A stretch of DNA of 64,000 nucleotides from contig JBDRRJ010000009.1 of NCBI GenBank assembly GCA_043825855.1, positions 17,866 to 81,865 of the forward strand, written 5' to 3'. Of the stretch, positions 3,347 to 54,894 are shown one piece after another. Each line of letters opens with the position of its first letter. Positions within the stretch are counted from its first letter, which is position 1. The position numbers and the translations under genes are program-made. The stretch comes from Pseudomonadota bacterium. Lineage in GTDB: Bacteria > Desulfobacterota > UBA8473. A model generated the notes under the pieces. It was not told where the DNA came from, did no database searches, and saw nothing but the letters and a program-made list of their open reading frames with translations.

Positions 3347-3354
3347 TCTATTCT

Positions 3355-6152: not shown

Positions 6153-6161
6153 AAGCTCTCC

Positions 6162-6407: not shown

Positions 6408-6425
6408 AATCCCCCCTCTTTTTTT

Positions 6426-7165: not shown

Positions 7166-7301
7166 AAAAAAACCACCCCCAGAAATTGGGCGCGGTTTTT
7201 ATAGATCCTATTTTACGGTTAATTTACTATTTGTCAAGTATTTTTTCCATATCTTGTGATATAATACATTAAGAATACAAGATATAGTGGTAACGGGTTG
7301 T

Positions 7302-7757
7302 TTAAATTCCTTTTGTTTCATATTCAAACTTTTCTATTAGCTTTCTTTTCCCGCCGATCAAAAACAATCTCTCATCCGGCCACTTTTCCATTATTGCCCT
7401 GTCAACGCTCTTGGCTATTTTGATCGCCTCGACAAATCCATATTCTTCAATCTTTGCAACCGCATCCCTGGGCAGGCTCACTTTCCAATCCTTTGTAAAA
7501 AGCAGAATCCCATTCGCCAGGCTGATTTTTTCCCGGCCGTCGAAGAGCTGCCCCTTGTTCTCCTTCATTAAGGAAACGATCTCTTTGTCGAGTTCGACAA
7601 GTTGTTCTTTCAATAATCCTAGCTCAGGCTCGTATCTCTCCCTAATTACAGCCATCTCCGCCTCGGCCTGTTTTTCCAGTGCGCCGATCCTATCCACAGT
7701 ATATTTAATATTACGCAGCATAATGTCTGCACACTCTTCCAGATACCTATCCATCAC
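7302..7757 (-). CDS. Probable Mu Gam-like host-nuclease inhibitor family protein
   Basis: 151 aa with an N-terminal coiled coil plus a C-terminal domain, in the early/semi-essential region as Mu gam is. Confidence 0.4.
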   Translation of the reverse strand: MMDRYLEECADIMLRNIKYTVDRIGALEKQAEAEMAVIRERYEPELGLLKEQLVELDKEIVSLMKENKGQLFDGREKISLANGILLFTKDWKVSLPRDAVAKIEEYGFVEAIKIAKSVDRAIMEKWPDERLFLIGGKRKLIEKFEYETKGI

Positions 7758-7816
7758 CCATCACCTCTATTATCCATTTAGACGCCTAAATGGTAAGTAC
7801 GCTTTCCGAATTACGA

Positions 7817-8422
7817 CTAACGACTCCCCAGATTCATCTGCATTTGTCCCAGCAGCTCTGCCAGCCCTATTTTTCTGATCTTTGATTCCATCCAGAGAGC
7901 CTTCAGTGCCCGCCTTCTGATTCTGCTCAGGTAATCCTCCAGTTCCGACCCTGCGCCGGCAAGGTAGTATCCGCCTCCATTTTTCGAGGTTGTTGAACAG
8001 ATGGGTACCCCATCTTTCCGTAAGAGAGTTATTACACTCCTAAGCCCCCTGGTATCGGAGATTTTATTCGAATAATCCTTCCCGAATACCTGAGAATAAA
8101 GATCACCCATATCTATCGCTTTCTCCCTGCCGATATGGCTGGATAGTACTGACAATACCGCCACCTTATGGGTATTTATGATGTTCGTTTCTTCTATTTT
8201 TTTTGACATCATGTTCTCCCTCCCTTGTTCGCACTTTATACAGTCCGGATACAAATACCCGTATGTTCCTGGTGTTTTATTTTTTTTCTGCCTTTTGATG
8301 CACACCTCTTTCGAGACCCGGGCATGATTCCGCTCACAATCGAAATATCCCTGGCCGTTTAATATCTGATCAATATTATCCATATAATTACCCAAATACC
8401 TTATATGCCCAGAAGTAACCAA
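7817..8422 (-). CDS. Hypothetical phage protein with an N-terminal Cys/His cluster (zinc-finger-like)
   Basis: CERNHARVSKEVCIKRQ…YPDCIKCEQG. The rest of the protein is not recognised. Confidence 0.35.
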   Translation of the reverse strand: MVTSGHIRYLGNYMDNIDQILNGQGYFDCERNHARVSKEVCIKRQKKNKTPGTYGYLYPDCIKCEQGRENMMSKKIEETNIINTHKVAVLSVLSSHIGREKAIDMGDLYSQVFGKDYSNKISDTRGLRSVITLLRKDGVPICSTTSKNGGGYYLAGAGSELEDYLSRIRRRALKALWMESKIRKIGLAELLGQMQMNLGSR

Positions 8423-8527
8423 TCCCTATCCCGATTACTAAGAGAACAAAAGCTAAAAAGAATTGTTTGAGCATATCCTTCCCGTTACCCTCCTCTATAT
8501 CAGGAGGGATTAAATACTCACGACGTT

Positions 8528-8722
8528 TCATACTTTTGTCTCCTCTATCTCCCTGTTAACGGTTTCCCACGGAATTCCCGTTATGGCATGTATCCTGGTC
8601 GTTTCCCGGACTGACAATCCCTTGTTTTTGCCTTTTTGGGTCATCTCCCTTGCCAGCGAGAGATCAACCATTTGAAACTCATCACCTTTAATTCTTTTTT
8701 TGAACATTAATATTCTTTTCAT
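8528..8722 (-). CDS. Small phage protein, possible HTH (Mor/C-like?)
   Basis: 64 aa; the stretch LSVRETTRIHAITGIPWETV looks helix-turn-helix-like. ATGA overlap with the upstream gene. Confidence 0.25.
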   Translation of the reverse strand: MKRILMFKKRIKGDEFQMVDLSLAREMTQKGKNKGLSVRETTRIHAITGIPWETVNREIEETKV

Positions 8723-9168
8723 GCGCTCTTTCCCTCCTCTTCGGCCCTTATCTTTTCCATGATTACAAGCATTCTTTTAAGCTTTCCGATATCCCTGCAC
8801 CATTCAAGTCTGTCTGTTCTGCATATAGTTTTGCAGAGACCCTGTGCTCGCTTTGCACCGTTTTCCATCTGGGCGGCAACCTCCATGATCCTTTCACGCA
8901 ATGCCTCAATCTGGCTTTCTTTTTGCCCTATCTTTGGGCTTTCTTTCCAGCCCATCGATATAAAATGATTTACAAGCTTTTCCAGTTTCCAGACAGGAAG
9001 ATCGGCTGCCGAAGCCACACACCAGGGCTGCGACCTGAGTATGTCTCTGTAGGTTTTGTCATCGAGTCCAAGCTCTTTTGCTGCAATATGGATTTTTGCA
9101 AGGAGACCGTTTCTCTGTCGCTGTAACTTATTTTGCGACTTTTCCCCGCCGCCTTTGATTACCTGCAT
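8719..9168 (-). CDS. GemA-like protein (Mu gp16, DUF1018)
   Basis: 149 aa; GLLAKIHIAAKELGLDDKTYRDIL is typical of the DUF1018/GemA N-terminus. Confidence 0.6.
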   Translation of the reverse strand: MQVIKGGGEKSQNKLQRQRNGLLAKIHIAAKELGLDDKTYRDILRSQPWCVASAADLPVWKLEKLVNHFISMGWKESPKIGQKESQIEALRERIMEVAAQMENGAKRAQGLCKTICRTDRLEWCRDIGKLKRMLVIMEKIRAEEEGKSA

Positions 9169-9176
9169 TATTCCCC

Positions 9177-9740
9177 CTACATCAACTCGATCTTAAATTT
9201 ATCTCTATCTGGTATGTTGTATAGATTCAGCGCTCCTCTGCCGTGTATACAAGGGCGTCTTCCAACCCTGGACAGATATCCATCCTTTTTGAGATTCCTT
9301 ATGATTCTACTTACATAACCCATATCTTTGTCTTCTACTCCTGCAATCCGCTGTATATCCGCCGAGGTAAAGGCTGATGCAGATACATATATTGCCTTGA
9401 TAATCCTGGTTAGCTTATCGCCTCTCTGTTTCTTGCGCCAGTTGCGGTTATATAAATACGTTGTCTGTTGTCCCTGCCTGTGCGTGTTCGCACGCAGACA
9501 GGCGTTGCCCGTTTTCGGTAGAGTAACGGTGGACGGTGAACGGTCGACCCTTATTATTTCTCCCCGATCGATAAAGTCAGGGATGGCGTTCCTGATCTGC
9601 GCCCTTTCTTTCCCTGTCGCTCCAAGCCCATCGCAGATATGAGGAACTGTGAACGGCCTTTTTCTGCCGGACATCCATTCCCTCATTCTTTTTGCCAGAC
9701 CGGTTTTAGGTGTTTTTACAGATGTCGTTTGCGAGTTCAT
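9177..9740 (-). CDS. Hypothetical phage early protein with a possible C-terminal winged-helix
   Basis: 187-aa ORF overlapping the MuB start. It contains an internal iteron-like stretch (aacggtggacggtgaacgg at about 9520-9545), so part of it may be regulatory rather than coding. Confidence 0.3.
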   Translation of the reverse strand: MNSQTTSVKTPKTGLAKRMREWMSGRKRPFTVPHICDGLGATGKERAQIRNAIPDFIDRGEIIRVDRSPSTVTLPKTGNACLRANTHRQGQQTTYLYNRNWRKKQRGDKLTRIIKAIYVSASAFTSADIQRIAGVEDKDMGYVSRIIRNLKKDGYLSRVGRRPCIHGRGALNLYNIPDRDKFKIELM

Positions 9741-10395
9741 CGGTTATCTCCTTTAATCCGCTTGCCTTCATTGCTCTTTCGATACCTATTGCCACAGTTA
9801 GCACAGGTCTCCAGTCGCCATGAGACCGGTGGTGTATTATTGACATAACCCCTGCCGATATCTCGACTCCAAGCGATTTCTGAAAAAAAAGGGCTATGTC
9901 CGGCTGAATCACCGGTGTAAACTCCATCTTCTGCCTGATCCTGCTGGCTATTCGGCGATGCCTCGTCACTTTCGTTTTAAGTTCATCTTCTCCAATCAGC
10001 AGGATAGGGCAGGAGTATCTCTCATTCAGCCCCCGCAACATCTCCAGTACTGGCATTGCCAACAGATCAGCCTCGTCAATTATCACCAGCCGTCTCTCTC
10101 TGCCCAGTTCATCCCCGATCAGGTTGAGGCACGTTTCTGAATTTCTTGGTTTAATTTTGCATAATTCGAAAGTGATTTCCCGAAGCAGCATTGATGCTGA
10201 TCTTATATTCAGTGGAGGCAGATATATAGCAGACGACGAGGCTGCATAGTGTTTGGCAGCCTCCGACTTTCCTCGGCCTGCAGGTCCTGTCACCATTGCA
10301 AGAGACGGCCCGATCATGCTCTCAGGGTCTTCCAGCTCTCTGCAGATACTATCAAAGGCGTTTATGTTCTTAGTGTTCACAAAGACATTCTTCAT
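9706..10395 (-). CDS. MuB-like AAA+ DNA transposition ATPase
   Basis: Walker A GPAGRGKSEAAKHYAA and Walker B LVIIDEADLL, sited immediately downstream of the transposase. Confidence 0.8.
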   Translation of the reverse strand: MKNVFVNTKNINAFDSICRELEDPESMIGPSLAMVTGPAGRGKSEAAKHYAASSSAIYLPPLNIRSASMLLREITFELCKIKPRNSETCLNLIGDELGRERRLVIIDEADLLAMPVLEMLRGLNERYSCPILLIGEDELKTKVTRHRRIASRIRQKMEFTPVIQPDIALFFQKSLGVEISAGVMSIIHHRSHGDWRPVLTVAIGIERAMKASGLKEITDELANDICKNT

Positions 10396-10413
10396 GTTGC
10401 GCTCCTTTACTCT

Positions 10414-10467
10414 TTGTTATCCGTTATCCGATGTCCGTTTTTATCGGTGAACCGTGAACGGTGAACG
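10414..10467. repeat. Inverted copy of the CCGTT-heptamer iteron element seen at 3355..3450, in the MuA-MuB intergenic region
   Basis: gttatccgttatccgatgtccgtttttatcggtgaaccgtgaacggtgaacg, which is approximately the reverse complement of the 3355-3450 element. Confidence 0.6.
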
Positions 10468-10471
10468 TATA

Positions 10472-12736
10472 TTATGAATAAGTCCCATATTTCCTCACCA
10501 TCTCCCAATACTCTCTCTGCCCTTCAGTCATTCTATTTTCATAATCGAGTTTAAAAGCCTGGTCAGATTCGTTTAGCTCACCGCCTGCGATTTCGTAGTC
10601 CACACAGAATGTGTATCTGGTCAGATCGTTCAGGAAGTATGTTGGTCTAACAGGCAGGGGTTTTATTCTGATGTTGTTTTTGCTTTTTTCTGCCTGAGCC
10701 TCCAGCTCTGCCATCTCTGCCTTCAGCTCTTCATCGGTCCATTCTCTGTTCAGCTCATACTGTTCGTCTGCCCTTTTCTTTTTATCCCTGCCTATAAGTG
10801 CGGCTGCTTTTTCTACAGATGATATTTTGGAGTGCTGTATAAAGTCTGGAATATTTGATGTGAGCTGTCTGTATTCTGCGATGCATTCCTTCCGGCGGCG
10901 GGCTTTCTCTTCAATCTTTTTCTCTGCTATGCCCTTGTTTTTCATGCTTGAGTATTCCACTAACTCTGCCTGGCAGAGATATTCACCCTTCGTGAATACA
11001 AGCAGCCATTCGGGATCCATCGGGTCATACCTGATCTCAACCTTTTCGCCTTTTTCAAGGTTGATGGGTATTAGAGCATCGTGCTCATACAGCTCGTTCC
11101 TGAATGTTATCCTGCCCCTGTCCACGCTCCTGGCATCCCTGGCAAGGAATATGAGGTCGGTGGTATCATTGTTTAGATATGTCGGCTGCCAGCCGTCCTG
11201 ACAGCACATCTTCAGGCAGTCCATAGGGGTTATTTCTCTGGGTTTTGGTCTCCATACCCATTCTTTTCTCACTCCCCTGTGGGCTTTAGTTTTGTTGTAG
11301 AAGTCCATTGCTTTATAAAGAATTACCCTGAACTCGCTGAAGGTGAGAAGTTTTCCGGCTTTTGCAAGTTTTTCGATCTCCTTCTGATCGACTTCCTGTT
11401 CTTCCTGGGATGCCGTCAGACGTTTCACGTATCCGGGAACCATGAACGTATTTCTTAATAACTGTTCAAATATGCTGAACGTCCCCTCGATCATTTTGGC
11501 TTTAGCATTTCGGACGATAGCCTTTCTGTGCATTCCGGGGATAATCACGCATGGATTGATCTCTTCAGGGTCTATGTCAACAGAACAGGCAGGGATATCT
11601 ATAACATTCTCGGCACTCATATGCAGTGATCGGATGTCTTTCATTATGCTCTGGATGTATTTTGATTCTTCCGGTTTGCCGTGGTCTGTGTAGATGGATC
11701 CAAATGCCCCGAATATCTTTACCCCGATACGCAGTGCCAGACCCATTAGCTGGCTGTCATACTTTCTGTCGACTGCGCCGCCATAGAAACACCGTGTCCT
11801 GAGATCCTGCCAGAAATATCCCTCTGGTCTGAATACCTCTCCGGTGTCGTCATCCACCACCCAGAAATCAAACCTATGCTGATCCCCGACGAGGATCTCA
11901 AACGGAGCGAGGTCGGAATAATTTCTGAGAACAGGTGGCAGGGTGTTGTCCAGGGCCCTGACTCCACCTCTTTGCAGGGCAAGAAGCTGAGGGGTGACCC
12001 TCTTCTTGAGCCACCAGAGTGCGCTCTCGTATCCGCCTATATCCCAGCCCCTCTTAGTTGCCTCTTCCTGCAGGATGGCATAAAGTTTCTTTTTGCCGTC
12101 TTTGGCGAGTTTTCTGTGTTCCTTCTTTAAACATAGTCCAACCCACCAGTCTATAGCCTCCGGAGTCCACGTCTTTGCCTGCTTGGGCTTGCTGTGTTTC
12201 AGCCCGGCAAGTCCGCCTTTTTCGTATTTCTGTATTTTTCTATATATAGTAGATATAGTGGTGTCGTGTTTTAGAGCTACAGCCTCGATCCACTCTCTCT
12301 TTTTCCATCCTCTGGGTACGTTGAGTGCTTCCTGAACTATCCGGCTCGATTTCTGCACTCCTTCGTCATGCAGTATATTTATATTTATAGCTGTGTTGCC
12401 TGACCATGCATCTGATCCGCCTGTGGAGGCTGATGACATCGACATGTCAGGGAGATATTTATTTGCAACCTCAATGGCTGCCTCCGGGGCAAGGGATGAT
12501 ATGAGAAGAGGGGATACGTCGTGTTCGGTGACGTATCTTTTTTGTGCATCAGGGGAAAGACATGAGAGGGCTATTTTGGTGATTACACCATTTTTACCCC
12601 CTCCATTCGGTGCAGGTACCTGTGATACTTTTTTGTAATAACCAGAGTTAATCCTTCTCTGAATTGTCTTTTCTGAGCAATTTTCGATGTCCACCACCTG
12701 TTTTTGAGTTAAATAGATGTCATCCATACGCAACAC
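10472..12736 (-). CDS. MuA-like DDE transposase (N-terminal DNA-binding domains, rve core, Mu transposase C-terminal)
   Basis: 754 aa sitting between Ner and B. It has HTH-like N-terminal domains and a DDE integrase-like core (…VGDQHRFDFWVVDD…). Confidence 0.85.
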   Translation of the reverse strand: MLRMDDIYLTQKQVVDIENCSEKTIQRRINSGYYKKVSQVPAPNGGGKNGVITKIALSCLSPDAQKRYVTEHDVSPLLISSLAPEAAIEVANKYLPDMSMSSASTGGSDAWSGNTAININILHDEGVQKSSRIVQEALNVPRGWKKREWIEAVALKHDTTISTIYRKIQKYEKGGLAGLKHSKPKQAKTWTPEAIDWWVGLCLKKEHRKLAKDGKKKLYAILQEEATKRGWDIGGYESALWWLKKRVTPQLLALQRGGVRALDNTLPPVLRNYSDLAPFEILVGDQHRFDFWVVDDDTGEVFRPEGYFWQDLRTRCFYGGAVDRKYDSQLMGLALRIGVKIFGAFGSIYTDHGKPEESKYIQSIMKDIRSLHMSAENVIDIPACSVDIDPEEINPCVIIPGMHRKAIVRNAKAKMIEGTFSIFEQLLRNTFMVPGYVKRLTASQEEQEVDQKEIEKLAKAGKLLTFSEFRVILYKAMDFYNKTKAHRGVRKEWVWRPKPREITPMDCLKMCCQDGWQPTYLNNDTTDLIFLARDARSVDRGRITFRNELYEHDALIPINLEKGEKVEIRYDPMDPEWLLVFTKGEYLCQAELVEYSSMKNKGIAEKKIEEKARRRKECIAEYRQLTSNIPDFIQHSKISSVEKAAALIGRDKKKRADEQYELNREWTDEELKAEMAELEAQAEKSKNNIRIKPLPVRPTYFLNDLTRYTFCVDYEIAGGELNESDQAFKLDYENRMTEGQREYWEMVRKYGTYS

Positions 12737-12831
12737 CTTATTATTATTAAAGAAAATTAGAAAAAGTTGCTCTCAAAAATGGCTGATTTCGATGTCCACC
12801 ACCTGTCCACCACCTATGGGAGGTGGTGGAC
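12682..12831. repeat. A 19-bp direct repeat, TTTCGATGTCCACCACCTG (12682-12700 and 12787-12805), plus a perfect 11-bp-stem hairpin GTCCACCACCT-atggg-AGGTGGTGGAC (12805-12831), around and upstream of the MuA start codon
   Basis: Read directly from the sequence. Copy 1 lies inside MuA codons 12-18 (QVVDIEN). Copy 2 and the hairpin lie in the leader between the 160-aa ORF and MuA. Confidence 0.6.
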
Positions 12832-12835
12832 ATTT

Positions 12836-13318
12836 TCATACTTCCTTCAATCCATCGAGAAGGGCTCTTCTCTTTTTGATCCCCTTATTGATTTTATCCC
12901 TCTGTTCCAGGAGTTTCTGTATGTCTGCCCTCAACGCTTCTTTGCCGGGCAGCACAAATACACCAGCTTTCATGCCCAGAAAATCAAGGAGCCCGGAGCT
13001 CTCCACGGAAATACAGAATGCAGGAGCAAAAATAGCCGGAAAGCGGTGGAGCTCTTTGCTCTCCGCAGTCCAGCTATCCAACATACTCTTGGTGATCTCA
13101 GTACCTGTAAGCTCGCTCATCCGGCCTGCTACGTGATACCGAGAGTATGGACATTTTTTGAGTTCGGCTGAAATCAATTCCCTGAATTCGATGTCTATGT
13201 TAAGGGAGCCTGCTTTGGGTAAACTATCCTCTTCCTGAGCCTTTTTCAGTATGTCAAAGAGGCTGAGTTGCTTGTCGTTGTTTTTGTCTATTCTTTTTCG
13301 TAACTTAGACATTGACAT
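12836..13318 (-). CDS. Hypothetical early protein between ner and A
   Basis: 160-aa basic protein with no recognised domain. Confidence 0.35.
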   Translation of the reverse strand: MSMSKLRKRIDKNNDKQLSLFDILKKAQEEDSLPKAGSLNIDIEFRELISAELKKCPYSRYHVAGRMSELTGTEITKSMLDSWTAESKELHRFPAIFAPAFCISVESSGLLDFLGMKAGVFVLPGKEALRADIQKLLEQRDKINKGIKKRRALLDGLKEV

Positions 13319-13415
13319 TGCTCAAAAAAAATTATAGAGTGCCCCTAACAGCCAGGACAATGATCAACCGCGCCCAGTATGATCGTATTGTCCCTTTTTG
13401 GCTGTTAGGGGGTTT

Positions 13416-13616
13416 TTATGCTGCTTTCTTAGGTGAAAAGAGCTTATCAATAGGGACCCCAAGCTCTCTGGCAATAGCCTCCTGGGTTGGCCTGGGATGT
13501 TTGCGCCCATAATATGTCTGAGATGTCCATGTCCTAGACCTGCCTATACGGATGGAAAGTTCGGTTATCGTTATTTCCTTTTCGATTAAAAGATGCCGTT
13601 TATCCTTAATGTTCAT
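13416..13616 (-). CDS. Ner-like DNA-binding protein (Mu Ner / Cro analogue)
   Basis: 66 aa; …TELSIRIGRSRTWTSQTYYGRKHPRPTQEAIARELGVPIDKLF aligns with Mu Ner …LSRQFGYAPTTLANALERHWPKGEQIIANALETKPEVIW. It is divergent from the c repressor. Confidence 0.55.
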   Translation of the reverse strand: MNIKDKRHLLIEKEITITELSIRIGRSRTWTSQTYYGRKHPRPTQEAIARELGVPIDKLFSPKKAA

Positions 13617-13747
13617 TTGTTGTCCTCTTAATAATTAACGTTTGACAACCACCAAAACCAATATAATCGCATAGCAATCAAAATAATTTAACTACCATTG
13701 GAGATAGAATACAAAAAGTCAGAAATGACAATAAGTTATCTCAACGT
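13617..13747. promoter_or_regulatory. Divergent c/ner switch region. Candidate plus-strand promoter with TTGACA (13642-13647) and TATAAT (13662-13667), although the spacer is only 14 nt.
   Basis: 131-bp AT-rich interval between divergent repressor genes. The hexamers were read directly; the spacing is suboptimal. Confidence 0.35.
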
Positions 13748-14344
13748 ATGTTTGCGGAAAACATTGGTATATCTCAGAGCTATCTATCGGAGCTTGAACA
13801 GAACAAAAAACCACCATCGGAACCAATTCTACTGGCCATAGAATATCGCTATGCTATACCAAAAGACTGGCTTCTCACTGGTGAAGGGGAGAAGGAAAAA
13901 ATTTCTGGCCCGCCATCCATAGCTGAACCCAGGGCGCCTTATATCCCTCCCATACCTGGTGTGATCCCCTTAAGAATAATCCCTGTTCTCGGCAGGGTTC
14001 CTGCAGGCTTTCCGGATCAGATACCGGAACAGGAAATCATAGAATATATAAAATGCCCCGATGGTCAATCAGGCTCTTATGCGCTGATCGTAAAGGGCGA
14101 AAACATGTCGCCGACAATAAAGGACGGTGACTATGTATTATTTATAAATAACGGTGATATCAAAAACGGGGATGTGATAGTTGTGAATAATGAGTGGGGT
14201 GATTCGATGATAAAACGTTATAGAGAGAAAGAAGGGGATATCCTGCTAACCAGCGACAACCCGGAATATCCAAGTTATAAGCCAAATGAGCAATACAGAA
14301 TCATAGGGAAAGTTGTAGGAGCTTGGCGGAATATAAAGGTGTAA
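13697..14344 (+). CDS. c repressor, CI/LexA-type: XRE-family HTH followed by an S24 peptidase (autocleavage) domain. The likely start is the non-ATG codon ATT at 13697; the ORF-track start at ATG 13748 truncates HTH helix 1.
   Basis: In-frame upstream translation gives TIGDRIQKVRNDNKLSQRMFAENIGISQSYLSELEQNKK, a complete XRE HTH. The C-terminus, LIVKGENMSPTIKDGDYVLFINNGDIKNGDVIVV…MIKRY, is LexA/S24-like. The only in-frame candidate start between the stop at 13664 and the ATG at 13748 is ATT. Confidence 0.75.
   Translation: MGDRIQKVRNDNKLSQRMFAENIGISQSYLSELEQNKKPPSEPILLAIEYRYAIPKDWLLTGEGEKEKISGPPSIAEPRAPYIPPIPGVIPLRIIPVLGRVPAGFPDQIPEQEIIEYIKCPDGQSGSYALIVKGENMSPTIKDGDYVLFINNGDIKNGDVIVVNNEWGDSMIKRYREKEGDILLTSDNPEYPSYKPNEQYRIIGKVVGAWRNIKV
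14281..14342. repeat. Copy 1 of a ~62-bp imperfect direct repeat, formed by the 3-prime end of the c repressor gene. Copy 2 is at 17171..17233.
   Basis: gccaaatgagcaatacagaatcatagggaaagttgtaggagcttggcggaatataaaggtgta compared with gccaaacgagcattattattatcataggaaaagttgtaggggcttggcggaatataaaagtgta. The last 42 nt match at 39 of 42 positions, and the upstream similarity crosses a reading-frame shift. Confidence 0.7.
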
Positions 14345-26692: not shown

Positions 26693-28106
26693 CTTAATTC
26701 CTCCTTTATGTATGGTTGTTTTGACTAGTCTGCATTCAGTGTCACTATTAATCTAATATAGTCTTGATTAGAATAGAGAGTTCAAAAGTGGTATAAGTCT
26801 AGTTATGACAATGAAAAAAAATATGTAAAACGTTCAAGAATTTCTGAGGCAAAAAATAAATATCTGTCTTACCAAAATTCCTTTGTTTAAACTTGGCCCT
26901 CTTCAGATTTATCACCCGAGGGGTGGATTCGATAGCAACAAAATTGAGAACCTCCCTTGCTACCGGTTTTATATTGTAAAGTTTTAGCCTTTCGAGTACG
27001 GGCCCAAACTCTGCTTTCGGAAATCCTTGTGCCAGCTCTGATAGAAGTGATCAGACTTTAACGGCAATTTTGTGGTAATTAGGCAAAAACTTTACAAAGA
27101 TCAAACTTTCCTTCTGTCGTCTAAAACTCCCGCATCTTTAGGTATAGTCTCTTCTTTCACCAACTCTACATTGGCTTTAAGACGTATAACCTCTTTTAAT
27201 TTATGTGGGGTATTAGCTTACCCCATTGATATTCCAGAAGCTTATCCCTTGGCATTGTTTCTATTTCCACGTTCCAGAAGTCTTGATTATTTGCCATCTG
27301 TACCTCTTCTTATTCTTTTAGTTTTCGGTTAATGTCTCTCCCCGAAAGTTTTGGAATTATCTCATTTACCCATATTATCTTTACTGCCTGTCTTTACCTA
27401 AACTGTGGTTCCCAATTCTCAAAAAAAGCTAATCCTATTGAAAATGCAGTTTTTTGTGGTGGAGGTAATCATTTTTATATTTAATCGGGGGCTTCTCCAC
27501 TCAGTTATCGGATTAAACTCTTAGTTATCGAAAAGGATTATAGCATTGGGACTTACAGGAGCAAGTAAAGAGAAAACTATGAGGAGTAAAAGAAGGATAT
27601 TTTATTATTAAATACTCAGGAAGAAAGACTGAAAGCGGAATGAGGAAGGTTTTTCTAAATGTTTTATAGATTTCAGCCCAAACATCTTAGTAGCTCCCCT
27701 TATTCTAGCGATCAAAAAAATTTTGTATTAAGCACCTCCCTTTTTTGTTTATTCATTTTTATATAAAAGACGCAGCATTGTCAAACTTTTTATTGTTAAT
27801 AGGTTAAGGGGATATCGATATATATGATAGACACAACAAGTGTTGTATTATGTCGTAAATTGGGTTTTTGTTTAGGTCTCTTTTTTAGCATGCTACTATA
27901 AAATTCAGACTTTTTCAGAGTTTATAAACCCAAATAACAAAGCAAAAAACTGGTTGAGATTTTTATAATTTTAACTTATCATTACTTAAGTCATGAAATT
28001 TATTACCAAGATATCGCATTACCTTAATATTTAGTCAGTCTCTTAGCCTAAAACTTTTTAGTCTAAAGTTGAAAGGAAGATTAAAATTCACAAAAAAGAC
28101 GTTATT

Positions 28107-43894: not shown

Positions 43895-44410
43895 ATATTA
43901 CCTGATAATTCCAAAGTTTTTTCATGATTCTCACCCTTGTGCAATATATAAACAAATATAACAAAATCGTATATAATTCAATGAAAAACTGTCTGAAGAG
44001 TTTTGGTGAACAACTCTCATTTAGCCGTAGTCATTGTTTTAATAGGGTCTAATCTTAAACGTTCGGTTATCTTGAAAAGTATGGCGACGGTTTATACCCT
44101 TATGTACGTATTATAAGGAAAACATTAACGGTTATTCCAGGATAAAAGGACAAAAAACAGACTTTAATTAAGTATGACCAAGCTATTATTGAGCAATAAA
44201 AAAATGTATTTTGGATAAAAAATTATGTATAATAAACAAACTGTAAATTGAAAAACAATAACTTAGCAAAATATTTAAACTTTCTTTCTCTCGTGAGCGT
44301 TTTTCTAATTTTTTTCAGATGTAAAGTAACTCTTCTATTTCTTCAGATGTCTAAATAAACAAGTTATCAAAAATTGAAGTTTAAATATGATGGAGAAAGG
44401 AGATAACAAA

Positions 44411-45025
44411 ATGAAAAAGTTACTTTTAGGGACAATCCTTTTAACGTTGGTCATTGTTGCTCCTGCCCGTACAATGGCTGAGATAGATGTAAGAGTTGGG
44501 ATTTCTTTACCGCCTCTCATCTTATTTGGGTCAGCTCCGGATGTGGTAGTGCTGCCAGAGACGGACAATGTATATGTTGTGCCCAGCATAGGTGTAGACC
44601 TGTTTTTCTGGAGTGGCTGGTGGTGGCGTCCATGGGAAGGTCGCTGGTATCGCTCACGTTATTATGACAGGGGATGGGCTTATTATGACAGAGTACCGGT
44701 ATTCTATTTTGATGTAGAACCGGGTTGGAGAAATCACTACAGAGACCATAGTTGGTATAATCACCGCTGGGAACATAAACGGATTCCTAATCAAGAACTT
44801 CAACGGAACTGGAAAAACTGGCAAAAAAACCGTTATTGGGAAAGGCAGAGAACCTGGGACATCCAAAAGTATAGACCTCAACCGCAACAACGGAGACAGG
44901 AACTGAGAAATCAAAGGCAACAGCAATATCAGCAGAGATCTGAGGTTCGTCAGGAAAGACAGAGACGGGAACGAAGAGAACAAAGGCCTGATGTTCAGCG
45001 ACAATACCAGGATCGACAAAGATAA
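44411..45025 (+). CDS. Secreted Trp/Arg/Tyr-rich protein with a short Gln/Arg-rich tail; paralogue of 45893..47032. Start trimmed to MKKLLLG, which has an RBS (aaaggaga).
   Basis: Signal peptide, then a conserved core: …VYVVPSIGVDLFFWSGWWWRPWEGRWYRSRYYDRGWAYYDRVPVFYFDVEPGWRNHYRDHSWYNHRW…. Confidence 0.6.
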   Translation: MKKLLLGTILLTLVIVAPARTMAEIDVRVGISLPPLILFGSAPDVVVLPETDNVYVVPSIGVDLFFWSGWWWRPWEGRWYRSRYYDRGWAYYDRVPVFYFDVEPGWRNHYRDHSWYNHRWEHKRIPNQELQRNWKNWQKNRYWERQRTWDIQKYRPQPQQRRQELRNQRQQQYQQRSEVRQERQRRERREQRPDVQRQYQDRQR

Positions 45026-45154
45026 CTTTGGGCATAGGCAAGGAAATTACAAAATACGACATCGATGCTGACCATTTCAGTAATGCCTTTATTAATGAGG
45101 CTATGGACCGGTATTACTTTAACAATATTTTTCTGTGGGTGTGATTCAGGGTGA

Positions 45155-45778
45155 TTACTTGTTTTGGATGTTGGCTATCCGGTCATTCCATGATGGATGG
45201 CTATCCCAAAATCCGCCACCCTCGGCAGAGTCTTTTTGGAGAGTTTTAAGGATTTGAATTTGTCTCTCAATGGAAATACCAAAGTGAGTAACAAGGACAT
45301 CGGAAGCCAGCTGATCGGCTTCCCGCTCCTGGGGTTTGCTGTAATTACTGGTAACTGCAGGATTGACAGCGTAATTTAACAAACCTGCGCCGGGAACAAA
45401 AATATCAACGATCATCATAACTCCTGTGGTAGCTATACTTACAGCCTGTTTTTTCTGGACATGGTTCAGTTTTATATGAGCCATTTCATGAACAATGACG
45501 AAGGTTAGGGTATCGTCATCATACCTGAAAAGACCTTCAGAAAGATTCACGTTATTATTTGCGTCAACAAAAGCATTAGGAGCTTTACCACCGTAAAAAT
45601 ACAGTTTGCATTCCTCTGTGATTTCCATGTCGTGGAGTGCTTTATTAAATATCTCCACACTTGGACGATCTTTAATATATTGAGGGACTATGTAAGGTTG
45701 ACGCGGGGAAGCGCAACCGATGAAAAGGGTAATGATTATAAGTGTTAATCCTATTCGTTTCATGTTATTATTATACAC
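45155..45778 (-). CDS. M48-family zinc metallopeptidase lipoprotein
   Basis: Lipobox LFIGCASP and HEMAHIKLNH (HExxH…H). Confidence 0.7.
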   Translation of the reverse strand: MYNNNMKRIGLTLIIITLFIGCASPRQPYIVPQYIKDRPSVEIFNKALHDMEITEECKLYFYGGKAPNAFVDANNNVNLSEGLFRYDDDTLTFVIVHEMAHIKLNHVQKKQAVSIATTGVMMIVDIFVPGAGLLNYAVNPAVTSNYSKPQEREADQLASDVLVTHFGISIERQIQILKTLQKDSAEGGGFWDSHPSWNDRIANIQNK

Positions 45779-45892
45779 TCTATTCAGGTTTTACAAAAGT
45801 TTTTAGTTTAAAACCTCTTTTTCGCAAAAGCATTTTTCTGGGATTTTTTTATAAATAAAAGTTTAAAAGTTATGGAGAAAGGAAATAACAAA

Positions 45893-47032
45893 ATGAAAAG
45901 GTTATTTTTGGGGACAATCCTTTTATCATTGGTAATTATCGTTGCTGCCTGTGTAGTGCCTGGAGCGAGTTTAAGAGTTGCAGTTCCTTTGCCGCCGTAC
46001 ATTGCATTCAGGTCAGCTCCGGATGTTATAGTGTTGCCAGATACGGATGATGTGTACGTTGTGCCCGATATCGATATAGACCTGTTTTTCTGGGGTGGCT
46101 GGTGGTGGCGTCCATGGGACGGTCGCTGGTATCGCTCACTTTATTATGACCGGGGATGGGCTTACTATGCCAGAGTTCCGATCTTCTATTTTGACATCGA
46201 TCCGGGTTGGAGAAGTCATTACAGAAACCATAGTTGGTTTAATTACCGCTGGGACTATAAACGGATCCCTCAACGGGAACTTCAACAGAACTGGAAAACC
46301 TGGCAGAAAAATCGATATTGGGAAAAGCAGAGAACCTGGGACATACAAAAGTATGAACCCCGACCGCTACAACAAAGACAGGAACTGAGAAATCAAAGGC
46401 AACAGCAATATCAGCAGAGACCTGAGATTCAGCAAGAAAGACAGAGATTGGAACTAAGAGATCAAAAGCAGGAGCAATATCAACAAAGGCCTGAAGTTCA
46501 GCAAGAACAACAGAGGCAGGAGCTGAGAAATCAAAAGGAAGAAGAGCAACGCAGAATTGAGATTCAGCAAGAAAGACAGCGACAGGAGCTACGAGAGCGA
46601 AAGGAAGAAGATCAACGAAGACTAGAGATGCAGCAAGAACAACAGAGACCCGAGGTTGGGCAAGAACGACAAAGGGAGGAATTAAAAGATCAAAGGCAAG
46701 AACAGTATCAACAAAGACCTGATGTTCAACAGGAACGGCAGAGGCAGGAACTAAAAGATCAAAAGCAGAAGCAATATCAACAGAGGCCTGAGGTTCAGCA
46801 ACAAGAAAAGAAACAGGAGTTACTTAAACAAAGAGAAGAAGAAAAACGAAGAATTGAGATGCAGCAGGAACGACAGAAGCAGGAGCTACGTAAGCAAAGG
46901 GAAGAAGTTAAACAGAAACCTGAAGTTAGGCAAAAACTAGAGAAAGAGAAAGTAAAAGATAAAGATCAAGAGCAACAGGAAGAGGAAGATCTACAGAAGC
47001 CAGAGCTTAAGCGAAATTTGCGGCAGAGATAA
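45893..47032 (+). CDS. Secreted Trp/Arg/Tyr-rich protein with a long Gln/Arg/Glu-rich tandem-repeat tail; paralogue of 44411..45025
   Basis: Same signal peptide plus W-rich core (…DIDLFFWGGWWWRPWDGRWYRSLYYDRGWAYYARVPIFYFDIDPGW…), followed by about nine 25-26-aa repeats of the form QQRPEVQQE.QRQELRNQKEE. Confidence 0.6.
   Translation: MKRLFLGTILLSLVIIVAACVVPGASLRVAVPLPPYIAFRSAPDVIVLPDTDDVYVVPDIDIDLFFWGGWWWRPWDGRWYRSLYYDRGWAYYARVPIFYFDIDPGWRSHYRNHSWFNYRWDYKRIPQRELQQNWKTWQKNRYWEKQRTWDIQKYEPRPLQQRQELRNQRQQQYQQRPEIQQERQRLELRDQKQEQYQQRPEVQQEQQRQELRNQKEEEQRRIEIQQERQRQELRERKEEDQRRLEMQQEQQRPEVGQERQREELKDQRQEQYQQRPDVQQERQRQELKDQKQKQYQQRPEVQQQEKKQELLKQREEEKRRIEMQQERQKQELRKQREEVKQKPEVRQKLEKEKVKDKDQEQQEEEDLQKPELKRNLRQR
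46380..46960 (+). repeat. In-frame tandem repeats of about 75-78 bp that encode the Gln/Arg/Glu-rich tail
   Basis: Units such as caacagcaatatcagcagagacctgagattcagcaagaaagacagagattggaactaagagatcaaaag recur with variation. Confidence 0.5.
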
Positions 47033-47402: not shown

Positions 47403-48305
47403 ATGAAAAATTCAGATAATAAAATAACAGTTTACGGTTCATCGCAAATACAAAAGAAAATATTCACAATACGTAACGAACAAGTTATCGTAGATCGTGA
47501 TCTAGCAGAATTGTATCAAGTCCCTACTAAACGTCTTAATGAGCAAGTGAAAAGAAATATAGAGAGATTCCCCGATACTTTTAGATTTCAGCTTGATGAT
47601 AACGAAAAAATTGAACTGGTCGCAAATTGCGACCGGTTCGAAAATCTTAAACATTCTTCCGTAAATCCATACGTTTTTACAGAGCAAGGCGTGGCTATGC
47701 TTTCAGCAGTATTGAAAAGCGAAATCGCAGTAGCAGTAAGCATACAAATTATAAATGCTTTTGTTGCTATGCGGAAATTCCTTGTTACAAACGCCGGGGT
47801 TTTTCAGCGGTTAGATAAATTAGAAATTAAGCAAATTGAAACAGATCAAAAATTTGAAAAAGTATTTAATGCGTTACAAAAAAAAGACTATGAACCTAAA
47901 CAAGGGATCTTTTTCGACGGACAAATTTTTGATGCTTACAAGTTTGTCTCATCTCTTATTCGCAAAGCTGAAAAAACCATTCTGTTAATTGATAACTATA
48001 TCGATGAAACTGTCCTGGATTTGTTTACCAAGAAGAAAAAGGATGTTTCTGTAACAATATTAACAGCTAATCTTAACAAATCTCTAACACTTGATGGAAA
48101 GAAATTCAACAAACAGTATCCGCGTATAACCATAAAAGAATTTAACAAAGCACACGATAGATTTTTGATTGTTGATGACAGCGTTGTTTACCACTTTGGC
48201 GCTTCATTGAAGGATTTGGGTAATAAGTGGTTTGCTTTTTCAAAGATGGATAAATCCGTACTTGAATTATTAGAAAACCTTAAAAAGGTTGATGCTGATG
48301 ATTGA
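47403..48305 (+). CDS. ORF6N (KilA-N superfamily) domain protein with an uncharacterised C-terminal domain
   Basis: …VYGSSQIQKKIFTIRNEQVIVDRDLAELYQVPTKRLNEQVKRNIERFPDTFRFQL…NPYVFTEQGVAMLSAVLKS. Confidence 0.6.
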   Translation: MKNSDNKITVYGSSQIQKKIFTIRNEQVIVDRDLAELYQVPTKRLNEQVKRNIERFPDTFRFQLDDNEKIELVANCDRFENLKHSSVNPYVFTEQGVAMLSAVLKSEIAVAVSIQIINAFVAMRKFLVTNAGVFQRLDKLEIKQIETDQKFEKVFNALQKKDYEPKQGIFFDGQIFDAYKFVSSLIRKAEKTILLIDNYIDETVLDLFTKKKKDVSVTILTANLNKSLTLDGKKFNKQYPRITIKEFNKAHDRFLIVDDSVVYHFGASLKDLGNKWFAFSKMDKSVLELLENLKKVDADD

Positions 48306-48337
48306 GTGGAAGGAAAATGAAGTCGGTAAAATTCCGT

Positions 48338-48465
48338 CTGACTGGGGTGGCCGACTAAAGCCATAGGTTTAATACTTTCAAAGAAAAAGAAAGAATAATA
48401 TAGGAGAGCAAAGGGGGAAGGGCGCTTTTTTAGTTTAAGACTGGTCGTATTGGGTTAAAGGATAC
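48338..48465. repeat. Repeat family R1, copy 1 (~125 bp). Other copies are at 50262..50300 (partial) and 50682..50803.
   Basis: ctgactggggtggccgactaaagccataggtttaatactttcaaagaaaaagaaagaataatataggagagcaaagggggaagggcgcttttttagtttaagactggtcgtattgggttaaagg, about 88% identical to copy 3. Confidence 0.65.
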
Positions 48466-48597
48466 AATGTAGAAATGGAAGATTGAATTATAAAATCCCT
48501 TTTGATAAACTCTGAAAAATTACCGAATTATTGAGCATATGTAATTGTCCAATTTTTCTGGATATCATTCCAAAAGTGATATTATCCAGCTAATTAT

Positions 48598-49083
48598 GTG
48601 GTAAAGTACAGAAAACTAGATACTAACTTGTTATACGGGATGAAGATGAAGAAGGCACAACCACAATGGCGATGGGAAGATGGCGTTGTGGATGATCGGA
48701 AAGAACACATTGAGCTTCGCCACGGGAACGCAATGGAAACCCCATATGAGGACTGGTTGCCCGTTGCTCGAATTGGAAAACCAAAGGAAAAGGTCTTCCC
48801 CGTGCAATGGTTGGTCAAACTGGACTCTCCGGAAGATCAGGTCATGTTGGCCGATGCACGCCGGGAACTGGACTTTTATTTGGTCGAGAAAGGTGAACCC
48901 GACCCCTGGGCCTATGCTTATTACCACTGTAATACGGGGGCGAACATGTACTCGCGCATACATTGGTCGTTTTTCCCCGACGGACGGGACGGTAAGCGGG
49001 TGTCAAGCCTTGTAATAGAACTCTCGGCCAAACAGGCGGAAGAACTGTTCGGAAAACCGCAGAAGACGAATGCAGGGAAGTGA
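48598..49083 (+). CDS. Hypothetical protein, relatively GC-rich compared with its neighbours
   Basis: 161-aa ORF with no recognised domain. Confidence 0.35.
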   Translation: MVKYRKLDTNLLYGMKMKKAQPQWRWEDGVVDDRKEHIELRHGNAMETPYEDWLPVARIGKPKEKVFPVQWLVKLDSPEDQVMLADARRELDFYLVEKGEPDPWAYAYYHCNTGANMYSRIHWSFFPDGRDGKRVSSLVIELSAKQAEELFGKPQKTNAGK

Positions 49084-49295
49084 GTTATGGACTATGGCAA
49101 CCGATGATGGGGCTACTACCGCATTCGATTGTAGCCTGAGGAGATCGAGAAGCACAAATAGATCCTATCTGAAGTGATTGCTGAGGCCTATGCGACAGGT
49201 GGTTAGAAATAAAAGCCGAACCAAACGTTGGAGACTATGCGGTAAACCGCGCTCCTCAACACTATCGTTATATGGTTCCTAAAACTAGATGAACT

Positions 49296-50006
49296 ATGAA
49301 CACTGAAAAACTATATGCGCGCCTTGTCCAGATTTGGGAGAGTACTTTCGAGGACGACTACGATACCCTGGTGCCTCTCGTTCCTGTGCCACCGAAGGCA
49401 CATTGTCTCCTTTTTGTTGGTTTGAATCCCTCCTTCAATCCCAGTGCTATTCGCAGATTGCTACCCGCGGAAAAGCGAATCGAACCTAGCACTTACTTCC
49501 ATTGGAGGAACAGACGAACATTCGACCCACAGGTTGACGTCTGCTTGCACGAACATGCTAAGAAAGAATATGTGTATTTCTCGCGCTTTCACAAGCTTTC
49601 GTCCATAGTCGGAGTCGACTGGGACCATATTGATATCTGCTTTTATCGTGAGACCTCTCAAGCCAAAACGCGAAGTAGAATAATCGAGAAGGAATCGACT
49701 CACAAACTAACGGACTTTGGAGAAAAGCAATTCAATCTGTCTATGCAGCTGATTGCGGAGGCAGAACCAAGATGCATCATCGTGGCCAACGCTCTTGCAA
49801 GTAACATCTACAGAATTAAGAACAGACTGAAGTTCTCGCCATCGCGCGGATGTTACCCACAGGTGATCTGCGGTAGGGAGTTGCCAGTTTTCCTTTCGTC
49901 CATGCTCACAGGCCAGAGAGCTTTGGACAACTACTCATTTGAGCGTCTCGCTTGGCACGTTTGTCGTGAGCTGGGCATACCAATGAATTATAGCGGAACC
50001 ACATAA
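49296..50006 (+). CDS. Possible UDG-superfamily (Mug/TDG-like) DNA glycosylase-fold protein
   Basis: CLLFVGLNPSFNPS resembles the Mug motif VVFCGINPGLSSA. Later segments (CIIVANALASNIY…, …VICGRELPVFLSS…) parallel the Mug β4/β5 region. Weak call. Confidence 0.3.
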   Translation: MNTEKLYARLVQIWESTFEDDYDTLVPLVPVPPKAHCLLFVGLNPSFNPSAIRRLLPAEKRIEPSTYFHWRNRRTFDPQVDVCLHEHAKKEYVYFSRFHKLSSIVGVDWDHIDICFYRETSQAKTRSRIIEKESTHKLTDFGEKQFNLSMQLIAEAEPRCIIVANALASNIYRIKNRLKFSPSRGCYPQVICGRELPVFLSSMLTGQRALDNYSFERLAWHVCRELGIPMNYSGTT

Positions 50007-50261
50007 CCATTCATTCCAGACCAACACTGGGGACTAGCGTTGATTGGATAGTCAAGGACACCCCAGCCCAGCACACTTTTTGAGAAATTTCGCCTCTTGG
50101 GTACAGCTTTACAAAAGGAGTTCAAAAAAGAAAAAACACTGGATTTTACCTGCTATTTGAGGTATAAGTAAGTGGATGGTTAATTAAACAGTGATGATTT
50201 TGTAAACCCTAAACACAGAGGGGTAATTATGAGGGCGTCTTTCTTTAGTTTCTGAGATTGC

Positions 50262-50300
50262 AGAGAGCAAAGAGGAAGGGCGCTTTTTTGTTTATGGCTG
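50262..50300. repeat. Repeat family R1, partial copy 2
   Basis: agagagcaaagaggaagggcgcttttttgtttatggctg. Confidence 0.5.
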
Positions 50301-50312
50301 GGCTATTCGTTT

Positions 50313-50552
50313 ATGAAGACCAAAACAAAATACACTGATGAACCTATTGGTGAGCTAAGAGTTGTTAAGGATTTTCTCCCCTCACCAGACCAGTTGGTAT
50401 TGAAAGAAGACAACGTCAAGGTTACAATCTCGCTTAAAAAATCGAGCATTGATTTTTTCAAAGAACAGGCAAAGGAACACAGAACATCCTATCAGAAAAT
50501 GATAAGGGAGGTTGTCGACTGGTACGCCTCAAATTATCGAAAGAACCCATAA
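50313..50552 (+). CDS. BrnA-like (COG3514/DUF4415) antitoxin-family protein, apparently orphan because no BrnT/DUF497 partner lies upstream
   Basis: …YTDEPIGELRVVKDFLPSPDQL…KVTISLKKSSIDFFKEQAKEHRTSYQKMIREVVDWYASNY. Confidence 0.5.
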   Translation: MKTKTKYTDEPIGELRVVKDFLPSPDQLVLKEDNVKVTISLKKSSIDFFKEQAKEHRTSYQKMIREVVDWYASNYRKNP

Positions 50553-50681
50553 CATCAGCTTGGATAAGAGTGCTCATTCCGTTGCACTCTATTCGTACCT
50601 GTCAAGCTCCGGAAGATTTTATGTACCAATTGACCAAAGACGAGTTCGAAAACTCGAAATCGCAAATTGCGATATCAAGCT

Positions 50682-50803
50682 CTGACTGGGATGGCAGACG
50701 AAAGCCATAGGTTTTATACTTGCAGAGAAAAAGAAATAATAATTTAGGGGAGCAAAGAGGGGGGCTTTTTTGGTTTAAGCCTGGTTTGTTCGGTTAAAGA
50801 ATA
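50682..50803. repeat. Repeat family R1, copy 3
   Basis: ctgactgggatggcagacgaaagccataggttttatacttgcagagaaaaagaaataataatttaggggagcaaagaggggggcttttttggtttaagcctggtttgttcggttaaag. Confidence 0.65.
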
Positions 50804-51146
50804 AAAATAGACATATCGCTGCATACTTTGATCTTGGTTAGGAAGAAATCAATGCCATAAACCAATTACTACAAGTAGAAAAGTAAGGAATTAACAAAAT
50901 AGATTCAAACATCACAGGCTTCAACCTTTGGATAAATTCAGGCGAAAGTTAAGGGCAGGGAGTTTTTCGCTGTCGCATTCATTTAATACCCGACAAATCA
51001 GCTGATGTTGATTAGCCAAGAGGTGGAGCGAGAAATTTATGTCCTGTAAAGTAAATTACTAATCAATCCAATAATTCGCTACATAGGACATTGGCGCTAT
51101 TTTGCCTCTTTATGTGAGGTTAACCTTTAGATGTTAAGGGAAAATA

Positions 51147-53616: not shown

Positions 53617-53734
53617 TTCTCTAATGTTGACCCTTTACAAGATTTGGAGAACAGATATTACACAAACTGCTATGCAGTTTGATAGTAGATATGAATATAA
53701 ATTAAGAGGGTCTAAGAAATAGCGACAGCGCCTA

Positions 53735-53778
53735 TTTAATTTGACACACAAAAAAGATGGGATTTTCTCTATTGTAAA
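53735..53778. repeat. Repeat family R2, copy a: TTTAATTTGACACACAAAAAAGATGGGATTTTCTCTATTGTAAA. It contains TTGACA and sits upstream of the zinc-ribbon ORF.
   Basis: Read directly. The other copies are at 54129..54171 and 60108..60146. Confidence 0.6.
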
Positions 53779-54058: not shown

Positions 54059-54128
54059 ACCATTTTTCGATAGAAATGACCCACGTAAAAGAAGGGAGAG
54101 ACACTAGAAATTGTAGGTACAGCAAACA

Positions 54129-54171
54129 TTTAATTTGATACACAAAAAGAAGGGATTTTCTCTATTGTAAA
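54129..54171. repeat. Repeat family R2, copy b
   Basis: tttaatttgatacacaaaaagaagggattttctctattgtaaa. Confidence 0.6.
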
Positions 54172-54650: not shown

Positions 54651-54894
54651 TTTACCGGGTTCTGCAAAAAATACTATGTCTTGTTTTTACATTTAAACCT
54701 ATTTATGTAAAGTTAGTGCCCTTTTATTTACATTGAATCCCTATAATGTAAACAAGATGCTTAACCCTTTGAATGGGACATGGAAAAATAGTTTTCTTGG
54801 TTAAATATACAGGAACAACTAAAAAATTTAACCCGTAAGTCAAATTATCACAAATAACTTGACTTGAACTCCAAATTATCATATAAGAGAACCT

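Follow-up and report, generated by a model that had tools for sequence, protein, structure and literature searches.

What is the short repeat that recurs between small defence-type genes, and how did it come to lie there? This question is raised by a 64,000-nucleotide (64-kb) stretch of contig JBDRRJ010000009.1 (assembly GCA_043825855.1), referred to below as the window, in which copies of a repeat named R1 lie between short co-oriented genes. R1 is best read as a composite seam and not a self-acting element: it consists of 30 nucleotides (nt) that probably come from a dead ORF6N gene, an AT-rich spacer of about 37 nt and the distal half of a non-coding module of about 290 nt, the parts of which are called Left, core and Right. 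We lean towards the view that the copies are recombination seams in a defence islet on a wrecked type I restriction-modification (R-M) operon, with the shared terminator module acting as the joint.

Copies and parts of the repeat R1

The two full copies, A (48337-48467) and B (50681-50806), are 82.4% identical over 131 nt in a gapped alignment (E value 1.4e-32), and a partial copy C (50263-50313) matches A at 83% over 54 nt (E value 1.3e-7). The existence and the positions of R1 had been noted in a preliminary description made from the letters alone. The identity of about 88% given there for the full copies is reached across the first 81 nt of the ungapped alignment, and the partial copy, which had been placed at 50262-50300, is present with a slightly longer extent. 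A fourth copy was found in the window neither by blastn nor by nhmmer profiles, and nhmmer profiles of Left, core, Right and the spacer revealed no extra diverged copies in the window or in the fetched loci of other genomes. Upstream of 48337 and 50681 the likeness of A and B ends, as 282 of 1000 shuffled sequences score equally well there. The block GAGCAAAG...CTTTTTT, described as conserved in each copy, does occur in all three, with GCGC absent from B.

Both full copies begin inside small open reading frames (ORFs) with the SDW(G/D)GR(L/R)KP ending described previously, namely SDWGGRLKP and SDWDGRRKP, each followed by a stop codon. The 46-codon ORF entering copy B matches positions 40-69 of the 86 positions of the Pfam profile ORF6N (PF10543; E value 1.8e-5). 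On this evidence R1 probably opens with the last 30 nt of an internal piece of a dead ORF6N gene. This match covers 30 of the 86 profile positions and reaches 25.4 bits, just under the 27.8-bit cut-off; tblastn with an ORF6N consensus as query gave an E value of 3e-9. The relic in copy A comprises only nine codons and is assigned via its homology to B. The rest of the ORF6N gene represented by the fragment (YAFTEQG...) was not found anywhere in the window. The parts of the three copies are as follows.

48337..48366, plus strand: R1-A part 1, ORF6N coding relic SDWGGRLKP and stop, homologous to the end of the copy-B fragment
48367..48403, plus strand: R1-A part 2, AT-rich spacer X, common to copy B only; its match to the Left hidden Markov model (HMM) is not significant
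48404..48456, plus strand: R1-A part 3, module core with hairpin 3' arm, T-tract and GTTTAAGACTGG (nhmmer core E value 2e-13)
50609..50710, plus strand: internal fragment of a second ORF6N gene (PEDFMYQLTKDEFENSKSQIAISSSDWDGRRKP and stop), its last 30 nt being the start of R1-B
50681..50813, plus strand: R1-B, consisting of ORF6N relic, spacer X, core and the first ~45 nt of Right
50263..50313, plus strand: partial copy C, module core, running into the start codon of a brnA-like ORF

Spacer X was also considered as a diverged Left; this was dropped, with an identity of about 56% by eye and no HMM match.

The Left-core-Right module, its relatives and its hairpin

The similarity to sequences from other genomes extends beyond R1 on both sides. 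A pattern scan for relatives, covering one genome per species, returned 26 loci, which is about the chance expectation. Extended similarity was seen in three of them, which belong to metagenome-assembled genomes (MAGs) of Thermodesulfovibrionia (L016), Omnitrophota (L012) and Desulfobacterales (L004); a metagenome scan returned only the L012 contig, already known. The counterparts of 50131-50262, of the core and of 48457-48561 are contiguous in L016 and L012, while L004 has Left-core only. Because the three pieces adjoin in L016 and L012, the comparison points to a discrete non-coding module of ~290 nt with the order Left-core-Right, of which the block conserved in R1 is the hairpin 3' arm and the U-tract, then GTTTAAGACTGG and the first ~45 nt of Right.

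50127..50262, plus strand: module Left, with the hairpin 5' arm; common to L004, L012 and L016 (nhmmer E value 5e-40)
48457..48561, plus strand: module Right, contiguous with the core; common to L016 and L012 (nhmmer E value 3.7e-35)
48554..48589, plus strand, and 1033-1068 in L004: operator-like palindrome (TGGATATCATT...TGATATTATCCAG), 28 of 35 positions identical, a score reached by 0 of 1000 shuffles

The module pieces of the window are 76-87% identical to the foreign copies; Left matches L004 at 82% over 174 nt by blastn, and 48404-48538 matches L016 at 86%. No neighbouring gene is common to the four loci, and the module is the sole sequence that they share. In L016 (1807-4929) it starts ~5 nt after a tRNA-Pro(CGG) gene, of which no repeated 3' end was found within the 6-kb contig, and is followed by genes for a Dcm-type methyltransferase, a restriction-enzyme-like protein and Vsr. 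In L012 the module lies upstream of small ORFs adjoining insertion sequence (IS) copies and a HicAB pair, and in L004 Left-core lies upstream of a BRO-N-type gene. On this comparison the module has spread horizontally, and the MAGs labelled Thermodesulfovibrionia, Omnitrophota and Desulfobacterales each carry it next to different, unrelated genes. The operator-like inverted repeat TGGATAWCATT...AATGATATCCA follows Right in the window and stands directly after the core in L004, a difference in placement which shows that further non-coding pieces were shuffled along with the module.

No match to the module was obtained in plasmid and phage collections by blastn in distant mode, and three viral scans gave only chance or coding matches. 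Its six-frame translations, concatenated and compared with a protein database in view of spurious ORF calls, returned nothing. In Rfam nothing reached the gathering score, and nothing credible appeared for the isolated module at E values up to 10.

Two further observations concern these sequences. Positions 27918-27942 of the window (GAGTTTATAAACCCAAATAACAAAG, 25 nt) match the best-conserved part of Left at 92-95% identity and include the palindrome GTTTATAAAC; a caspase-like (Peptidase_C14) gene follows ~165 nt downstream, and the stretch could be an isolated relic or a binding motif. In L012, two 99.8% identical copies of an IS transposase gene (110-4335, one ending at the contig end) bracket a 163-codon ORF and HicB/HicA, ~1 kb from the module.

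Within the window the order is X-core-Right, GC-rich cargo, Left-core-brnA, which is a circular permutation of the intact module. Cores A, B and C are 74-76% identical to one another. The core of A together with the start of Right is 85% identical to L016 and 84% to L012, compared with 76% to B and 75% to C, and the local copies are thus not recent duplicates. At the same time the ORF6N relic and spacer X of A and B are about 87-88% identical and were found nowhere else. As relic and spacer match B, and core and Right match the foreign copies, A is a mosaic, which excludes a simple local duplication. Duplication of one gene end (an ORF6N 3' fragment with the sequence downstream) followed by divergence would account for the shared relic and spacer; the closer foreign relatives of core A, the presence of Left at C and its absence from A and B, and the related copies in three other genomes make it very improbable. 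The preliminary description had named a local duplication with no copies elsewhere as the outcome that would overturn its view of R1, and the three foreign loci speak otherwise.

The foreign copies also bear on the suggestion of a miniature inverted-repeat transposable element (MITE), which had been made for R1 earlier. R1 would then be a non-autonomous transposon, in keeping with its small size, its non-coding AT-rich sequence and its occurrence in several genomes. Neither R1 nor the module has terminal inverted repeats, the ends differ in every copy, reading of the boundaries revealed no target duplications, and the window has three partial copies, with a single one at each relative locus. 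Moreover, a cognate transposase is missing, the only one being of Mu type in the prophage of the window. We consider this origin highly improbable.

Copy C and its left flank can be folded into a stable structure, the features of which are listed here.

50231..50289, plus strand only: intrinsic-terminator-like hairpin with a 16-bp outer stem, an inner stem and U6 (-34.9 kcal/mol, z -2.5)
50229..50255, plus strand: mini-ORF of eight codons, MRASFFSF and stop, with GAGGGG upstream, read from the sequence; it overlaps the hairpin 5' arm

The plus-strand folds of copy C, L016 and L004 range from -32 to -36 kcal/mol (z -2.5 to -4.3), and that of L012 reaches -29.5 kcal/mol (z -1.7). Complement folds are much weaker because many pairs are G.U: the window hairpin has -15.1 kcal/mol on the minus strand, and L016 has -32.3 on the plus and -22.3 on the minus strand. 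Across the four sequences 92% of the alignment cells are paired, as against 61-75% in slid registers. The predicted intrinsic-terminator-like structure is thus well supported, and copy C and the relatives have it complete. Copies A and B have the ORF6N relic and spacer X in place of its 5' arm, so that the R1-A core lacks this arm, and the R1-B core has in addition a 4-nt deletion in the stem arm; folding of A and B is insignificant (z -0.4 and -0.7). The earlier statement that the copies lack strong hairpins is therefore correct for A and B and fails for C taken with its left flank. A shared terminator or promoter module, also proposed at that stage, is borne out in so far as the conserved block makes up the distal half of a hairpin of the intrinsic-terminator type, intact only in C and the relatives; the promoter part is not, the matches being at chance level.

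Rho-independent terminators and leader-peptide attenuators, such as the pyrBI- and erm-type leaders, are the known systems with which the hairpin can be compared. Like these, copy C and its relatives carry on the coding strand a long stem-loop with U6-7 after it, and a short ORF with a Shine-Dalgarno-like GGGG lies over the 5' arm, so that its translation could in principle block the hairpin. Unlike them, the module retains 76-87% nucleotide identity between distant lineages in which the genes next to it are unrelated, A and B retain the 3' arm only, the start of the mini-ORF is missing in one sequence of four, and no regulatory signal is known. The mini-ORF reads MKASFFSS and stop in L016 and L004 and lacks its ATG in L012; to call it an attenuator leader is speculation. 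As to promoters, a weak promoter-like TTGATA-N18-AATTAT was flagged in Right of the window and in L016, and an extended -10-like TGGTTAAAT with TTGAGG 17 nt upstream can be read in three of the four sequences. Claims of sigma-70 promoters were downgraded, as the scans were at chance level and inconsistent across the relatives.

These elements could together form a functional cis-regulatory or small-RNA unit, comprising a promoter, a leader of ~100 nt with the mini-ORF and an attenuator terminator, which selection retains ahead of mobile defence genes; on this view the copies of the window would all be decayed regulatory regions that play no role in recombination. The strand-specific hairpin and U-tract agree with this proposal, as do the Shine-Dalgarno-like GGGG with the eight-codon ORF and the -10-like TGGTTAAAT with TTGAGG, each in three of four sequences, and the constant position of the module upstream of accessory genes. 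We judge it decidedly unlikely, for A and B without a 5' arm have no attenuator, L012 has no ATG, the promoter scans remain at chance level with no match in Rfam, and the permuted order and the ORF6N and hsdS fragments are left unexplained.

Proposed recombination at the module core

The reading which we favour, of R1 as recombination seams, starts from the permutation. If a module copy on incoming DNA recombined with a copy in the chromosome, the permuted order would result, either by a single crossover in the ~50-75-nt core or by unequal exchange between module copies. The simplest mechanism would be a homology-driven exchange without a dedicated enzyme. The module would supply termination and perhaps expression signals to the incoming genes, and its AT-rich region would face whichever gene follows. 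Among the alternatives of the preliminary description, cassette junctions left by serial insertions fit best, given the contrast of the blocks in GC content and origin, the permuted module and the finding that the local copies are not each other's closest relatives.

Neisseria Correia elements and 'minimal mobile elements' offer a parallel, with short intergenic repeats that bear transcription signals and with cassettes replaced via recombination in conserved flanks and not by a dedicated enzyme. R1 resembles them as a short intergenic repeat with transcription signals for which a homology-driven exchange is proposed. It differs in that the module of the window has no terminal inverted repeats and a low copy number, and that its homology patch is a horizontally spread non-coding module and not a core gene.

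Several observations weigh against the seam reading and should be considered together. No empty site, circular form or strain variant was found, exact-protein look-ups having returned the same genome only. The homology breakpoints are scattered and define no single point of crossover: in A and B they lie in the hairpin loop, in L016 at a -10-like box adjoining tRNA-Pro, and in L004, B and C 12-45 nt past the U-tract. The cores of A and C are identical over no more than 16 nt in a row, a short stretch for RecA-dependent exchange. On its own, a passive scar does not explain why a discrete piece of ~290 nt is conserved while its flanks differ everywhere, which hints at active mobility or selection. 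The hairpin is without covariation support, four sequences being too few, and the promoter-like matches, which do not exceed chance, are inconsistent between the relatives. Finally, only four genomic contexts are known, and the phylum labels, in two cases for contigs shorter than 6 kb, are those of MAG bins, so that mis-binning is possible.

The same permutation could have been produced by a dedicated enzyme. The core would then be a site-specific recombination site of an undescribed cassette system, and a circle with Left-core-Right (attP-like) would have brought in the 1.9-kb block at 48.4-50.3 kb by integrating into X-core-Y (attB-like, as copy B), with a recombinase encoded elsewhere and acting in trans. 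The attL/attR-type permutation fits this proposal exactly. The composition of the cargo is unlike that of its neighbours, the module alone is conserved between the four genomes, and a host enzyme would make a linked recombinase unnecessary. In addition, A has an extra base after the T-run, like B, but the donor-type GTTTAAGACTGGTCGTAT to the right, and C shows the reverse. We regard the proposal as unlikely on several counts. In the island and the flanking ORFs scanned no integrase or transposase domain was detected, the sole transposase being of Mu type in a prophage 35 kb away. The breakpoints vary between loci, the derived AAGGGCGC arm is common to A and C where different parents are predicted, each relative has a single module and no array, and dif-like sites are not above chance.

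The last point concerns a Xer/dif module, a candidate prompted by GGTTAAAT-like motifs near several breakpoints. Searches with three reference dif sequences matched at best 16 of 22 arm positions, a score equalled by shuffled controls, with none at a boundary, and the candidate was rejected. Small accessory and toxin-antitoxin (TA) modules are known to move with no linked recombinase gene in Acinetobacter pdif modules and Xer-dependent elements. The islet shares with these the small accessory or TA gene modules and the absence of a linked recombinase gene; it lacks a 28-bp XerC/XerD-type boundary site above chance, and R1 consists of direct repeats of much greater length.

Integron attC sites of a chromosomal cassette array represent another enzyme-dependent possibility. 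Co-oriented genes, ORFs that are small or of TA or defence type and the repeats between them would agree with it, and the likeness to integron cassettes extends to repeats of ~60-130 nt between compositionally diverse accessory genes, including an antitoxin, and to a permuted order as after insertion of a circle. The absence of attC sites had already been stated in the preliminary description, and our analysis agrees: TATAAAC...GTTTAAG violates the core-site consensus RYYYAAC...GTTRRRY of R'' and R', with an asymmetric spacing to the hairpin of 23 nt on one side and 0 nt on the other. A folded bottom strand is expected of attC, but the hairpin uses G.U pairs and is stable on the top strand only, and A and B cannot fold. 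No IntI or attI was found, no Phage_integrase match was obtained in the island or the flanking ORFs (not every small ORF of the window was scanned), and the breakpoints are not fixed. We give this possibility next to no credence.

In the farthest-reaching proposal, the module would be a portable junction element crossing phyla, combining insulator or attenuator and recombination site, by means of which a host or trans-acting recombinase inserts small circular defence or TA cassettes with no linked integrase. We consider this quite unlikely.

The islet and its remnant operon

Under the seam reading the islet rests on a type I R-M operon, the traces of which lie immediately upstream of copy A.

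47403..48305, plus strand: intact gene with ORF6N (Pfam E value 5.6e-31) and a weak PLDc_2 match, PLD-like, of the PADLOC candidate defence family PDC-S05 (E value 1e-121)
48298..48336, plus strand: hsdS 5' stub (MIEWKEN...), fused in frame to R1-A; its start overlaps the stop of the ORF6N/PLD gene as ATGATTGA

The closest homologue of the ORF6N/PLD product (79%) is encoded between hsdM and hsdS in another genome (locus L042). There hsdS starts with MSEWREC and has the same stop/start overlap as that noted earlier between the ORF6N gene and the tiny ORF, found in the window as ATGATTGA at 48298-48305. The DNA identity between the window and L042 extends to 48315, and GCTGATGA(T/G)TGAGTGGA(A/G)GGAA is common to both and missing in four solitary homologues. 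This synteny marks the tiny ORF MIEWKENEVGKIPSDWGGRLKP as the 5' stub of hsdS, which at the boundary of R1 is joined to the ORF6N relic. The preliminary description had likened a KIPSDW ending to the N-terminus of specificity subunits; an hsdS stub does exist, but as MIEWKEN, and SDWGGRLKP is the ORF6N relic. An ORF6N origin of the whole ORF upstream of A (IEWKENEVGKIP) was considered and rejected, because the similarity was not significant and the synteny makes its first codons the hsdS stub.

Compared with type I R-M operons with an embedded PDC-S05 gene, as in L042, the window has the 79% identical gene, the overlapping stop and start and the similar MIEWKE for MSEWRE; it differs in that hsdM is missing and hsdS is cut by R1 after about 6-13 codons. 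In tblastn searches of the window with HsdM and HsdS of L042 no match was found, hence neither hsdM nor the body of hsdS. The stretch 47403-48336 is, as judged from this comparison, the remains of a decayed type I R-M operon. One representative of PDC-S05 was reported to protect E. coli against T7, T5 and T4 (bioRxiv 10.1101/2024.09.26.614923).

The three module pieces of the window separate four gene blocks. The first comprises the ORF6N/PLD gene and the hsdS stub (GC 33%). As delimiters, the R1 copies enclose the ORFs that had been named before, which form the second block and part of the third.

48646..49083, plus strand: 145-amino-acid (aa) ORF, block 2 (161 aa from a GTG start), GC 52%, no family match
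49296..50006, plus strand: gene for a 236-aa protein with uracil-DNA glycosylase (UDG)-superfamily fold, block 2, GC 48%
50313..50552, plus strand: orphan brnA-like/RHH antitoxin ORF, block 3; weak Pfam matches to BrnA_antitoxin (E value 0.0065) and DUF6364

The cargo of block 2 has a GC content of 48-52%, compared with 33-39% in its neighbours. The earlier label 'UDG-like' holds at the level of the predicted fold: the AlphaFold2 model of the 236-aa protein has a pLDDT of 93, and its best Foldseek matches are family-4 UDG, UdgX, TDG and SMUG1 (E value 1.5e-4). The family is rare, with 70 database matches and no Pfam entry, and has invariant residues G42, N44 and P45 (GLNPS motif), D113 and N165. 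Judging from the model, the gene may serve in defence as a DNA glycosylase type. Its 71% homologue is found on a plasmid-like contig (ParAB/RPA) which is without the module, and no modules were found flanking homologues of the 236-aa gene; cargo and module thus seem to travel separately.

Block 3 consists of the orphan brnA-like ORF and the ORF6N fragment. The brnT gene expected upstream of brnA is missing, and Left-core of the module sits in its place, with the similarity reaching the start codon. Block 4 contains an HD/YfbR-like gene, an NmeDI-like restriction endonuclease gene, two small ORFs and an AAA_14/DUF4143 (PDC-S01) gene.

Just upstream of the PDC-S01 gene the operator-like palindrome TTTACAT-N14-ATGTAAA occurs twice, 41 nt apart (54686-54713 and 54727-54754). 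A pair of intergenic repeats (53720-53765 and 54114-54159; 46 nt, 74% identical, with TTTAATTTGACACACAAAAA) lies upstream of unrelated 73- and 79-aa ORFs and may be another shared upstream module in the same islet. Farther upstream, at 44387-47032, paralogous genes encode secreted W/R/Q-rich proteins of 212 and 386 aa, which are ~80-86% identical at an offset of 1482 nt; the 386-aa gene, the second of the two, has 69-nt internal tandem repeats, and an M48 peptidase gene lies between the paralogues on the opposite strand. The end of the Mu-like transposable prophage occupies 1-14344 on the minus strand, with genes for Mu F-like, Mu portal, terminase and gp27 proteins, an AAA_22 MuB-like ATPase, the Mu transposase (10472-12736) and an S24/HTH repressor-like protein (13748-14344).

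Defence islands are known to turn over quickly, and there is for the most part no explanation of how single genes enter and leave them with no integrase or transposase close by. In the present case, four otherwise unrelated loci have only a discrete non-coding module in common, and in one genome it is cut and permuted at the borders of blocks which differ in composition. Should the module be more than a passive scar, it could be a small portable unit that provides incoming genes with a patch of homology or a recombination site together with termination signals, and cassette exchange in defence islets would become directly testable. If it is only a scar, the decay of a type I R-M operon into a patchwork of orphan genes for defence and antitoxins can still be followed clearly at this locus.

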